A stretch of DNA of 5,056 nt from a virus (Duplodnaviria; Heunggongvirae; Uroviricota; Caudoviricetes): the IMG/VR virus record IMGVR_UViG_2529293223_000003; one strand, written 5' to 3'. Position numbers and translations under genes: made by a program. Each line of letters starts with the position of its first letter. The stretch's first letter is position 1. The notes beneath the pieces are model-generated. The model was not told the DNA's origin, ran no database searches, and saw only the letters and a program-made list of their open reading frames with translations. Shown piece by piece: positions 1-5,056 of the stretch.

Positions 1-7
1 AAATAGA

Positions 8-1030
8 ATGGCATCAGAAGAGCTAATAATGAGCAGAAAAACCCAACGTTACTCTAAAGAGTTCAAAGCCGAAGCTGTCAGAACGGTTCTTGAAAATCAA
101 CTTTCGATCAGTGAAGGCGCTTCCCGATTATCCCTTCCTGAAGGCACTTTAGGACAATGGGTTACCGCCGCCAGAAAAGGGCTCGGTACTCCTGGTTCCC
201 GCACGGTGGCTGAACTGGAATCTGAAATTCTGCAACTGCGTAAGGCGTTAAATGAAGCTCGCCTTGAGCGAGATATATTAAAAAAAAGCAACAGCGTATT
301 TTGCACAGGAGTCGCTGAAAAATACGCGTTAATCGAACAATGGCGACAACAATTTCCTATTGAAGCGATGTGTCAGGTATTTGGTGTATCCAGGAGCGGT
401 TATTACAACTGGGTACAGCATGAACCCTCAGACAGAAAACAAAGTGATGAGCGGCTAAAACTGGAGATTAAGGTGGCACATATCCGCACTCGCGAAACAT
501 ATGGAACCCGGCGGCTCCAGACGGAGCTGGCAGAGAATGGCATCATCGTTGGTCGTGACCGACTGGCACGTCTTCGTAAGGAGCTAAGGCTACGCTGTAA
601 GCAGGAACGCAAGTTCAGAGCGACTACGAACTCGAACCACAATCTGCCAGTTGCGCCAAATCTGCTGAACCAGACGTTCGCTCCTACAGCACCAAATCAG
701 GTCTGGGTGGCGGACCTGACGTATGTTGCCACACAGGAGGGATGGTTGTACCTCGCTGGCATCAAAGATGTTTATACGTGCGAAATTGTCGGCTACGCCA
801 TGGGAGAGCGCATGACAAAAGAGCTGACAGGTAAAGCCCTGTTTATGGCGCTCAGGAGCCAGCGCCCACCTGCCGGGCTAATCCACCACTCTGATCGAGG
901 TTCACAGTACTGCGCATACGATTACCGGGTCATACAGGAGCAGTTTGGTCTGAAAACATCAATGTCGCGTAAAGGTAACTGTTACGACAACGCTCCGATG
1001 GAAAGCTTCTGGGGAACGCTGAAAAAATGA
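8..1030 (+). CDS. IS3-family transposase, OrfA-OrfB fused in one continuous frame (340 codons); likely true start is the ATG at 29 (MSRKTQRYSKEF...); C-terminus frameshifted
   Basis: Six-frame ORF 8..1030. An A8 run at 280-287 places orfA and orfB in one frame. With one fewer A the upstream frame reads ...LKKATAYFAQESLKNTR then TAA, a typical 100-aa OrfA ending, so this ORF corresponds to the OrfAB fusion normally made by -1 ribosomal frameshifting on A AAA AAA. The ORF ends at TGA 1028-1030 immediately after an A6 run. Confidence 0.8.
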   Translation: MASEELIMSRKTQRYSKEFKAEAVRTVLENQLSISEGASRLSLPEGTLGQWVTAARKGLGTPGSRTVAELESEILQLRKALNEARLERDILKKSNSVFCTGVAEKYALIEQWRQQFPIEAMCQVFGVSRSGYYNWVQHEPSDRKQSDERLKLEIKVAHIRTRETYGTRRLQTELAENGIIVGRDRLARLRKELRLRCKQERKFRATTNSNHNLPVAPNLLNQTFAPTAPNQVWVADLTYVATQEGWLYLAGIKDVYTCEIVGYAMGERMTKELTGKALFMALRSQRPPAGLIHHSDRGSQYCAYDYRVIQEQFGLKTSMSRKGNCYDNAPMESFWGTLKK

Positions 1031-1118
1031 GAGCCTGAGCCACTATCGTTTTAATAACCGGGATGAAGCCATCTCAGTAATACGGGAATACATTGAGATT
1101 TTCTACAATCGTCAGCGT
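1026..1118 (+). pseudogene. Out-of-frame C-terminal fragment of the IS3-family orfB (NESLSHYRFNNRDEAISVIREYIEIFYNRQR), cut by the Mu insertion
   Basis: Translating the +1 frame from 1026 gives 31 codons with the conserved IS3-family C-terminal pattern (LKNE...F..R.EA...I.EYIE.FYN..R), ending exactly at the Mu terminus. The frame break is at the A6 run 1022-1027. Confidence 0.7.
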
Positions 1119-2086: not shown

Positions 2087-2180
2087 TTCGCCGTTATCTT
2101 AAAAAATCTCATCAGTCGGGTGTGGTTATCGGGACATAATCGATCGGTAATACAGATCGATTTAATTGATTCGATCGTCG
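2087..2180 (-). promoter_or_regulatory. com-mom promoter region: three Dam GATC sites (2142-2145, 2155-2158, 2173-2176), T6 run and -10-like TAAGAT (minus strand, about 2096-2106)
   Basis: Three GATC sites within 35 bp upstream of com, the last inside the final codons of the gin remnant. On the minus strand, GAGATTTTTTAAGATAACGG precedes com. This matches the known Dam/OxyR- and C-protein-regulated mom promoter architecture of Mu. Exact -35/-10 assignment is uncertain. Confidence 0.6.
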
Positions 2181-2359
2181 TTTTCTATATGCGTTCCTTT
2201 TTGAAGGCGCTTTAAAGCACGTTTTAATCCCGGTCGGTCTGTCCTTGTTCCGCTTAATTTATCTTCAAATATTTGTTCACATCCTGCACAAACAAGAGCG
2301 TTTCGTTGCAGGTCTGTATTCTGGTCATTTGTTGATACCCTTACATAGCCAATCAGCAC
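2162..2359 (-). pseudogene. gin: gin serine DNA invertase, internally deleted in frame: 65-codon remnant with N-terminal 55 residues and C-terminal about 9 residues
   Basis: GTG start at 2359. MLIGYVRVSTNDQNTDLQRNALVCAGCEQIFEDKLSGTRTDRPGLKRALKRLQKG matches the N-terminus of Gin/Pin/Hin/Cin-type invertases, with the catalytic Ser at residue 9. The ORF then reads T-HIENDDRIN and stops. Full-length invertases are about 185-195 aa, and the gix-to-com interval has no room for another one. Junction is around 2189-2197. Confidence 0.8.
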
Positions 2360-2413: not shown

Positions 2414-2439
2414 TTATCTAAAACCTCGGTTTACAGGAA
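2414..2439. other. gix recombination (crossover) site, the gin-proximal boundary of the invertible G segment
   Basis: TTATCTAAAACCTCGGTTTACAGGAA is a 26-bp imperfect palindrome of the hix/gix/cix type (TT.....AAACC / GGTTT.....AA half-sites around a 2-bp core), 55 bp upstream of the gin start. The tail-fibre reading frame opens immediately inside it. Confidence 0.7.
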
Positions 2440-3384
2440 ACGGTAAATCAGGCTTCTGGCGCATTACAGAAAAACCAGAACGGCGCAGATATTCCAGGAA
2501 AAGATACCTTCACCAAAAATATTGGGGCCTGCCGCGCATATAGCGCATGGGTGGATATTGGTGGCGATAGTCAGGTCTGGACAACTGCGCAATTTATTTC
2601 GTGGCTGGAGAGTCAGGGGGCATTTAACCATCCTTACTGGATGTGCAAAGGCTCATGGGCTTATGCAAACAATAAGGTCATTACAGATACAGGTTGCGGA
2701 AATATTTGTCTTGCAGGTGCTGTGGTGGAAGTTACTGGCACTCGCGGCGCAATGACCATACGTGTTACTACACCGAGTACGTCCAGCGGTGGCGGAATTA
2801 CTAACGCTCAATTCACTTATATTAATCATGGCAATGCTTATGCTCCTGGCTGGCGACGAGACTACAACACGAAAAACCAGCAGCCTGCATTTGCTTTAGG
2901 GCAAACAGGAAATACCGTCGGAAACGACAAAGCCGTTGGCTGGAACTGGAATAGCGGTGTTTATGATGCAGATATCAGCGGTGCATCAACATTAATCCTC
3001 CACTTCAATAAGAATACGGGGAGCTGCCCTGCTGTACAGTTCCGTGTGAATTATAAGAACGGCGGTATTTTTTATCGTTCAGCGCGTGATGGTTATGGAT
3101 TTGAGGCTGGCTGGTCAGAGTTTTACACCACAACACGCAAGCCATCAGCGAGAGATGTTGGCGCATATACGCAGGCAGAATGTAACTCAAGGTTTATTAC
3201 AGGTATTCGCCTTGGTGGTCTGTCATCTGTTCGGACATGGAATGGTCCCGGCTGGTCTGACAGGTCAGGTTATGTTGTTACCGGTTCCGTTAACTCAAAC
3301 AGAGATGAACTAATTGATACAACTCAGGCAAGGCCAGTTCAGTATTGCATTAATGGGACGTGGTATAACGCGGGGAGTATTTAA
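2422..3384 (+). CDS. S': Tail-fibre variable C-terminal part, gin-proximal cassette (probably S'v, silent in this orientation); no start codon of its own
   Basis: The frame is open from the stop at 2419-2421 (inside gix) through to 3384. The track's GTG at 2551 has no Shine-Dalgarno. C-terminus ...PVQYCINGTWYNAGSI parallels the other cassette. The S' versus S label is inferred from partner sizes (U' 177 aa, U 175 aa, from memory). Confidence 0.7.
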   Translation, partial: NLGLQETVNQASGALQKNQNGADIPGKDTFTKNIGACRAYSAWVDIGGDSQVWTTAQFISWLESQGAFNHPYWMCKGSWAYANNKVITDTGCGNICLAGAVVEVTGTRGAMTIRVTTPSTSSGGGITNAQFTYINHGNAYAPGWRRDYNTKNQQPAFALGQTGNTVGNDKAVGWNWNSGVYDADISGASTLILHFNKNTGSCPAVQFRVNYKNGGIFYRSARDGYGFEAGWSEFYTTTRKPSARDVGAYTQAECNSRFITGIRLGGLSSVRTWNGPGWSDRSGYVVTGSVNSNRDELIDTTQARPVQYCINGTWYNAGSI

Positions 3385-3386
3385 CG

Positions 3387-3920
3387 ATGATGCACTTAAA
3401 AAACATTTCTGCTGGTAATCCTGAAACAAAAGAGCAATACCAGCTAACGAAGCAATTTAACATCAAATGGCTTTATACAGAGGATGGAAAAAACTGGTAT
3501 GAGGAACAAAAGAATTTCCAGTCTGATACGTTGAAAATGGTCTATGACCACAACGGCGTTATTATTTGTATTGAAAAGGATGTTTCAGCAATTAATCCGG
3601 AAGGCGCAAGCGTCGTTGAGGTTCCTGATATTACAGCAAATCGCCGGGCTGATATTTCAGGTAAATGGATGTTCAAAGATGGCGTAGTGATAAAGCGAAC
3701 TTATACCGGGGAAGAGCAGAGGCAACAGGCGGAAAATGAAAAGCAAAGCCTGCTACAGCTCGTCAGGGATAAAACCCAGCTATGGGACTCACAGCTACGG
3801 CTGGGTATCATTTCCGACGAGAATAAACAAAAATTAACCGAGTGGATGCTCTATGCGCAGAAAGTCGAATCCACAGACACCTCCAGCCTGTCAGTAACGT
3901 TTCCCGAACAACCTGAATGA
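3387..3920 (+). CDS. U': Tail-fibre assembly protein (Tfa family), 177 aa, probably U'
   Basis: ORF 3387..3920, MMHLKNISAGNPETKEQYQLTK..., starting 2 nt after the tail-fibre stop with a GGGGAG Shine-Dalgarno. N-terminal about 110 residues are paralogous to the minus-strand Tfa, the C-terminus diverges. Confidence 0.85.
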   Translation: MMHLKNISAGNPETKEQYQLTKQFNIKWLYTEDGKNWYEEQKNFQSDTLKMVYDHNGVIICIEKDVSAINPEGASVVEVPDITANRRADISGKWMFKDGVVIKRTYTGEEQRQQAENEKQSLLQLVRDKTQLWDSQLRLGIISDENKQKLTEWMLYAQKVESTDTSSLSVTFPEQPE

Positions 3921-3923
3921 GAC

Positions 3924-3950
3924 AAGGCCCGCTATCGGGCCTTAATTTTT
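3924..3950 (+). terminator. Intrinsic-terminator-like hairpin between the convergent tfa genes (stem AAGGCCCG / CGGGCCTT, loop CTAT, then AATTTTT)
   Basis: 8-bp GC-rich stem at 3924-3931 and 3936-3943 followed by a T5 run on the plus strand. The U-tract is weaker on the minus strand, so bidirectional function is uncertain. Confidence 0.5.
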
Positions 3951-4476
3951 ACTCTGGTTTTTGTGGCCATTCTGGCTTTGCCGTATCCACACGGCTGACC
4001 AGAACACTGTAGCGTTCCCATGACTCCAGTCGTGCGCGTTCCTCATCTGTTGCCATATTCAGCCTGACAGAGCGCTCCAGCGGCTGAATAACGCTTTCTG
4101 CTTCGGAAAGTAACGCAGCTTTTTGTAATTCGGCCTGTTGTTGCTGTTCGTCTGCCGTATAAATCCGTTTAACCACAGCTCCGTCCTTAAACATCCATTT
4201 ACCTGAGTCATCAGCACGTCGGTTGGCTGTTATATCGGGGATTTCAACGACGCTAAAACCTTCAGGATTAAGCGTGGAGGCATCTTTAGTGACGGCGACA
4301 ATAATATTATTTTCGTCGTAAACAATCTTTATTGTGTCCGGCTGAAAGTTCTTCACTTCCTCATACCAGTTTTTATCGTCTTCAGAGTAAAGCCAGATGA
4401 CTCCGTGTTTCTTTGTCAGCTCATACTGTTCTGGTGTTTTAGCGTTACCCGCTTTTATATTCTTCAGGTGCATCAT
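3949..4476 (-). CDS. U: Tail-fibre assembly protein (Tfa family), 175 aa, probably U
   Basis: ORF 3949..4509 trimmed to the [11 protein letters not shown]... start at 4476, which mirrors the plus-strand tfa start and lies 1 nt after the upstream tail-fibre stop (4478-4480). The 11 extra N-terminal codons in the track ORF overlap the tail-fibre gene and are unlikely to be real. Confidence 0.85.
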
Positions 4477-4477
4477 A

Positions 4478-5056
4478 TTAAATACTCGCCACATTATACC
4501 AAGTGCCATTTATATACTTTTGCACTGGCCTGTAATGAACGCCTGCAATATTATCGGCAGAGTTTTTTCCGGTATCCTGTACGTTAATCCCCGTCAGTAC
4601 ATAGCCTGACGGGCACTGGAAATTCCATGTTTGCCAGTTGTTCACTCCATAATATTGCTGTGAACCAAGCCGGACATCTTTCACATATCTGGAATCAAAA
4701 TTGCCATAGTTGCCTGGAATAACTTGCGAGCCGCAAAGCCAGTTACCGTTATTATCCATGTACGCCTGACCATCGGTGCCATTGGCTGTCCTTGAGTTAT
4801 TAATCATGTAGATGCCAAATTGCTTATTCCCCAGCCCACCAATTACGAATTTACGGTCGGTATGGTCCTGGCGAAGCAATGCCTGCGCACCATCGTTGGA
4901 TACCGCATTACGGCCCAGAATAACATTCTGGTCACGCATATGAATCCACATGCCGGTACTACTGTTAATTGCAAAACGGTTTGCAAATATATCTCCTGTA
5001 ACAACCAGACCATGCCCCATGCTTATCCGGCCAGTTCTGAGATTAAGCGTAAAGGG
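4478..5056 (-). CDS. S: Tail-fibre variable C-terminal part, distal cassette (probably Sv, the expressed one if fused to a constant part outside the window); partial, continues past the window end
   Basis: Minus-strand frame is open from the window edge (5056) to the stop at 4478-4480. C-terminus ...[16 protein letters not shown]. The ATG at 5020 is internal. Confidence 0.75.

Follow-up and report, generated by a model that had tools for sequence, protein, structure and literature searches.

The sequence analysed here contains one copy of IS600, an insertion sequence already known, and a Mu-like prophage has been inserted into this copy at IS600 nt 1152. The window, that is, the whole stretch of 5056 bases, is identical to a complete contig, AFGE01000074.1, of the draft assembly GCA_000211975.2. 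Two A runs of this copy are each one base longer than in the reference element, and these changes are genuine departures from the reference IS600 that are private to one draft contig. Together with a third one-base indel, they would join the two transposase reading frames, weaken the ribosome-binding site and cut the product short. On balance, we lean towards reading the three indels as consensus errors made in assembling a short, all-repeat contig of the 2011 Shigella boydii 5216-82 draft. Whether they are errors or the result of decay, no working constitutive transposase is encoded, and the window holds an ordinary, already disabled IS600 copy of a known kind. Nothing in it is of a new kind; IS copies with frameshifts are commonplace, and so are miscalled homopolymers.

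The deposited annotation of the contig product EGI88660.1 names the organism as Shigella boydii 5216-82, and the accession GCA_000211975.2 is assigned to the same strain in PMC8342411. Window positions 1–1118 (plus strand) correspond to nt 36–1152 of the 1264-bp IS600, a member of the IS3 family that is common in Shigella and in some E. coli. Over these 1118 nt, the nucleotide identity is 99.6% to many annotated copies, and the window shares with the IS600 of Shigella and E. coli its OrfA and OrfB proteins, the position of the slippery run and the downstream hairpin. In the transposase of the window, Pfam finds HTH_Tnp_1 (3–75), HTH_21 (140–196) and a complete rve domain (220–318); the C-terminal rve_3/rve_2 matches, present in the reference, are lost in the truncated product. 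The codons for E-S-F-W-G-T-L-K lie at 1001–1024 (plus strand), inside the rve match. From general knowledge of DDE transposases, we take the E to be the catalytic glutamate of the DDE triad and the K, seven residues further on, to be the conserved lysine. Compared with IS600, the window has three private one-base indels (G1, A8 and A6) and a private A-to-G substitution at 605 on the plus strand, which changes AAA to GAA and K to E in OrfB; the base is A in the reference and in both orthologous loci. It also lacks nt 1–35 and 1153–1264 of the element. At the left, the contig begins only after the first 35 nt; at the right, the Mu insertion splits off the last 112 nt, and the right inverted repeat lies outside the window.

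At the junction 1118/1119, IS600 sequence gives way to the right end of the Mu-like prophage. This end (attR side) occupies 1119–1233 on the minus strand, and its terminus is exactly that of phage Mu (AF083977), with no mismatch in the final 22 bases (1119–1140). The similarity continues inward: the identity is 96% over attR-mom-com, and, in the gene order of the phage, mom, com and what is left of gin are followed by the invertible G segment, which bears the tail-fibre genes. Mom, Com and the N-terminus of Resolvase are recognised by Pfam. The window differs from phage Mu in its G segment, which is ~92% identical and carries other S/S' alleles, and in an internal deletion in gin. As a consequence of the Mu insertion, the last 22 codons of the transposase are missing from this IS600 copy, and a TGA formed by the first three bases of Mu would terminate OrfB if its frame were uninterrupted.

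The same IS600::Mu junction was found in at least two other assemblies. One of these loci (L178) lies on a 3.3-Mb contig of GCA_002968245.1, with IS600 beside a shortened flgJ in the series flgJ-flgK-flgL, and its gene calls comprise a 100-aa OrfA and a 250-aa OrfB that ends at the Mu TGA. A second (L004) is a provirus fragment from IMG/VR whose first base corresponds to window position 368. Because the copy-specific base T358 is common to the window and L178, these two represent the same insertion by descent. Searches for the junction gave no match in the GTDB species representatives or the JGI metagenomes and one match in IMG/VR; none of the complete E. coli genomes or PLSDB plasmids has it.

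Run lengths were compared with those of an IS600 copy (L001) annotated by PGAP with a programmed frameshift. In the orfA frame of the reference, a zero-frame slippery heptamer of the X XXY YYZ type is present as A AAA AAA. In the reference IS600 and in the orthologous L178, whose OrfB is separate, orfA overlaps an orfB that lies in the −1 frame. The window copy departs from this layout only because A8 puts orfA and orfB in one frame. The A8 run (280–287, plus strand) contains the slippery heptamer and is one base longer than the A7 of the reference; it is the longest homopolymer of the window and its sole run of at least 7 bases. Six nucleotides after the run, at 294–327 (plus strand), the fold of the reference copy places a hairpin with a 9-bp stem (GCGUAUUUU/AAAAUACGC), and the window is identical there. 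The fold z was −1.98 for a 121-nt segment of the reference copy. Stimulatory hairpins of the IS3 family begin 4–10 nt past the slippery motif (PMC4066793), and, by this analogy, the putative frameshift-stimulating hairpin fits the usual layout of the family. The normal OrfA stop, TAA, is found just past the hairpin, at 330–332 in the A7 frame. In IS elements that use transcriptional slippage, RNA polymerase slips on a long run of A or T and mRNAs of mixed frame result; efficient runs generally have 9 or more bases, and A8 is shorter than this.

The second run, at 1022–1027 (plus strand), is A6 in place of the A5 of the reference. It starts at the conserved Lys codon, seven residues past the catalytic Glu, and creates a premature TGA at 1028–1030. 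The Mu junction and A605G had been missed in the preliminary description of this DNA, and so had a third one-base indel: alignment to the reference and to L178 places a GG-to-G deletion at position 20, in the orfA Shine-Dalgarno sequence (16–22, plus strand), which reads AAGAG here and AAGGAG in the reference. The same deletion puts an upstream ATG at 8 in frame. As written, the window therefore contains a single plus-strand ORF in which OrfA is fused to OrfB. It starts at 29 (333 aa) or at 8 (340 aa) and ends at 1030 with ...MESFWGTLKK and a stop, 30 codons short of the Mu junction and 52 short of the natural end. In this region, the deposited annotation of the contig calls only 473–1030 (EGI88660.1).

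The preliminary description had reported both A runs as single-A gains, and direct reading and the alignment to the reference IS600 (A7 to A8 and A5 to A6) bear this out. It had also held that A7 would give a standard 100-aa OrfA. Deletion of one A at 280 in silico does give such a protein, ending in ...LKKATAYFAQESLKNTR, which is an exact match to IS600 ORF1 on at least 1000 contigs. That A8 is equivalent to a −1 shift and fuses orfA to orfB agrees with the single ORF that runs to 1030. When one A is removed at 1022, NESLSHYRFNNRDEAISVIREYIEIFYNRQR is restored and the sequence is identical to the reference OrfB as far as the Mu junction. Thus, A6 indeed shifts the frame just past E...K, and the C-terminal peptide of OrfB, NESLSHY...FYNRQR, goes on in the +1 frame at 1026–1118 (plus strand); with one A less, it is that of the reference OrfB and of the 250-aa OrfB of L178.

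The label of a “constitutive OrfAB fusion”, which had been attached to these changes, is unsupported. Frame-fused OrfAB alleles of IS2 have been engineered by converting A6G to A7G in the slippery run (PMC3219604), and, as in the window, a single extra A makes OrfAB a zero-frame product. However, in the engineered IS3-family alleles the C-terminus, the ribosome-binding site and the ends are all intact. The window copy has none of the three intact and therefore cannot act as a hyperactive allele. With a weakened ribosome-binding site, truncation after the catalytic core and the loss of 22 codons and the right end through Mu, there is no active transposase and no autonomous movement. The A8 copies of E. 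coli 2014C-3655 (L002; WP_106914028.1) and of IMG/VR 2896595138_000002 resemble the window in having A8 at the same site and a contiguous ORF but, unlike it, have kept GG and A5 and are of full length (385 aa). In the IMG/VR record, two otherwise intact A8 copies (L065 at 6441 and L089 at 9275) occupy different sites of one 34.6-kb contig that also carries an A7 copy. Such intact copies may be fused-frame alleles that arose naturally and spread, or else they reflect homopolymer errors of long-read sequencing.

Among the IS600 copies of IMG/VR, the first site was A7 in 146, A8 in 3 and A6 in 5 (n = 154). The second site was A5 in 172/172, and the orfA Shine-Dalgarno had GG in all 146 copies. 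When the variants were searched for directly, A8 was found in only three IMG/VR copies, and A6 at the second site had no match in the whole IMG/VR collection. In the 5,426 complete E. coli genomes, 3 records matched the A8 sequence exactly over its full length, and A6 occurred in 1 of ~3,400 matching records. The 385-aa “fused” IS600 proteins in NCBI are unusable for counting A8 alleles, because the PGAP conceptual frameshift translation of A7 copies has the identical sequence. The orthologous L178 has GG/A7/A5, and L004, which covers only the second of the three indel sites, has A5. In the assembly of the window itself, the other IS600 copies, on AFGE01000075.1 and AFGE01000053.1, have reference run lengths at all five sites covered. 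The exact 340-aa and 333-aa products occur in no other assembly, the frameshifted products being on record from AFGE01000074.1 alone; neither of the “corrected” proteins that bear the private K-to-E change (the 250-aa OrfB and a 363-aa fusion) is on record in other datasets. Judging from these sequences, all three indels (G1, A8 and A6) appear to be private to AFGE01000074.1. Two outcomes had been named beforehand as bearing against the preliminary description: A7 and A5 in other IS copies, which is what they carry, the orthologue included, and a reference element with A8 and A6, which the reference is not.

Real mutation and homopolymer error had been named from the start as the alternatives, and they are the right pair. 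Given the observed identity of the element, the Mu junction, and the three indels with their privacy and rarity, we infer that error is somewhat more probable than mutation. The insertion of the Mu-like prophage at IS600 nt 1152 had already inactivated the copy before the indels arose. The assembly of the contig would then have introduced G2 to G1 in the ribosome-binding site, A7 to A8 in the frameshift site and A5 to A6 in the conserved Lys codon. The true DNA would have the standard layout of OrfA, −1 frameshift and OrfB, running straight into the Mu end. When the window is compared with L178, the IS part shows 3 indels and 1 substitution, whereas the 3.9-kb Mu part shows 0 indels and 14 substitutions (Fisher p = 0.005 for this split). 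Mutation-accumulation studies of E. coli give roughly 1 indel per 10 substitutions, and error is favoured because the ratio in the IS part is far from this value. It is also favoured because all three differences are one-base changes in homopolymer length, because they are absent from the orthologous L178 and rare or absent in public copies, and because they are confined to the high-copy repeat part of an all-repeat contig, one of them 20 nt from the contig end. Additionally, the draft sibling L004 has a private homopolymer change of its own and the 3.3-Mb contig L178 has none, and the restriction of the frameshifted products to this one contig points the same way. The 2011 assembly was presumably made by pyrosequencing. 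Nevertheless, some observations count against error. The correct runs in two other IS600 copies mean that the assembly did not systematically miscall these runs, and systematic miscalling was rejected on that ground. The Mu part of the contig has 17 runs of at least 5 bases and no indel, and the loss of one G from GG would be unusual as a consensus error if coverage was not very low. The private substitutions A605G and G1956A indicate some real private divergence, so real private indels could exist too. A chimeric consensus with a second Mu remnant was likewise rejected, the private base at 1956 being missing from all 14 other sequences.

It is quite possible, although less probable than error, that the three indels are real and arose by replication slippage as neutral decay of a pseudogene after Mu had killed the copy, with no functional consequence. 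The copy is certainly dead through the junction 1118/1119, and the contig has private substitutions as well. A7 runs are recognised as indel-prone (PMC4066793), the slippery run varies in both directions elsewhere (A8 in 3 copies, A6 in 5 and A5 in one further copy, L170), and the correct calls in the other IS600 copies of the assembly fit such decay too. However, 3 indels against one or two substitutions is an extreme ratio for natural mutation, except in a lineage that had for a time been deficient in mismatch repair. The neighbouring Mu remnant is equally unconstrained and has no indels, GG and A5 are no strong slippage hotspots, and no second assembly has any of the three indels. All the readings besides error and neutral decay are, even taken together, unlikely. 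One of them supposes that the indels are real and ordered: A7 to A8 would have deregulated the transposase supply to many IS600 copies, and the ribosome-binding site lesion and A6 would have been selected as suppressors. An extra A in the slippery run does give a frame-fused, high-level transposase in IS2 (PMC3219604), A8 is found in intact copies elsewhere, including two on one contig at different sites, and each of the three lesions affects either the expression or the integrity of a single ORF, with none in the neighbouring Mu DNA. Even so, such a history is very improbable: the orthologous locus shows that Mu was inserted before the indels arose, so any A8 product of the window copy would already have been without its last 22 residues and may not have been active; the order of events is not recoverable from sequence, and errors in a repeat region would give the same pattern. 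It is just as doubtful that A8 is real and one case of recurrent, natural, hard-coded OrfAB alleles of IS600, which a few assemblies of E. coli and Shigella have in intact form, silenced here by the ribosome-binding site lesion and the truncating frameshift. That A8 and A6 could be the natural state of IS600, with a reference element encoding a contiguous transposase, has a negligible probability. Nothing beyond the window sequence itself speaks for it, the reference copies with a PGAP programmed frameshift and the vast majority of copies carry A7 and A5, and with A6 the ORF is truncated rather than contiguous. The reference alignment, the IMG/VR counts and the E. coli genome counts refute it.

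If the indels are errors, as we favour, then the homopolymer miscalls in short, repeat-only contigs of early drafts look like recoding or pseudogenisation, and too much should not be read into the IS frameshift sites of such contigs. If the indels are real, the window adds one more decayed IS copy to the hundreds in Shigella genomes. If A8 were real and then silenced, the copy would preserve, in an IS-expanded Shigella genome, natural evidence that a transposase was first deregulated and then suppressed. The A5, A6 and A8 variants of the IS600 A7 slippery run in other assemblies are a point of modest biological interest.

Other IS600 copies showed changes of their own. The copies on AFGE01000075.1 (L188, at 3541) and AFGE01000053.1 (L189, at 3163) have in common a nonsense change, GGA to TGA, right after ...MESFW, as well as T667C. 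A transposase-defective IS600 variant has therefore been copied to at least two sites, and it was presumably mobilised in trans. On L188, at 437–1710, a more diverged IS600-like copy of the same assembly is interrupted by 8 extra base pairs precisely where the slippery run lies (ATATTAAAAAAGTAAGCGCCCCATCAGCG). The A5 at the slippery site of L170 (~3646, CP066809.1) belongs to an IS600 copy beside a dpiA-linked Mu remnant and without the standard context of the second site, so that run length varies in complete-genome assemblies too.

The Mu part of the window has several features that can be described separately. The substitution G1956A is private and changes Ala to Val in Com and also Pro to Ser in a long Mom ORF; G is present in 14/14 other copies of this Mu end. 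The variant Com protein is on record nowhere else, and no closer relative of the strain was recruited through it. The gin remnant (2162–2359, minus strand) has lost ~380 bp internally relative to phage Mu, with the breakpoint near 2196–2200, and encodes a 65-aa product that is indexed, in its exact form, in 613 blocks of the assembly collection. The deleted gin is found in Mu remnants at two chromosomal sites, one by dpiA and citrate lyase and the other in IS600 near flgJ, and the mom-com-gin DNA of both is 99.7–99.9% identical. The G segment (2414–5020) is in the opposite orientation in several related assemblies (L171–L175 and L179) with the resident gin deleted, which suggests either another invertase acting in trans or old, fixed orientations. 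At window positions 3488–3493, L004 (position 3120) has a private A5 where the window and L178 have A6, and U' is frameshifted there. A cluster of substitutions relative to L178 and L004 lies at 3308–3449, at the S'/U' boundary; its flanks are almost identical, and it looks like the outcome of recombination between G-segment alleles rather than of point mutation.
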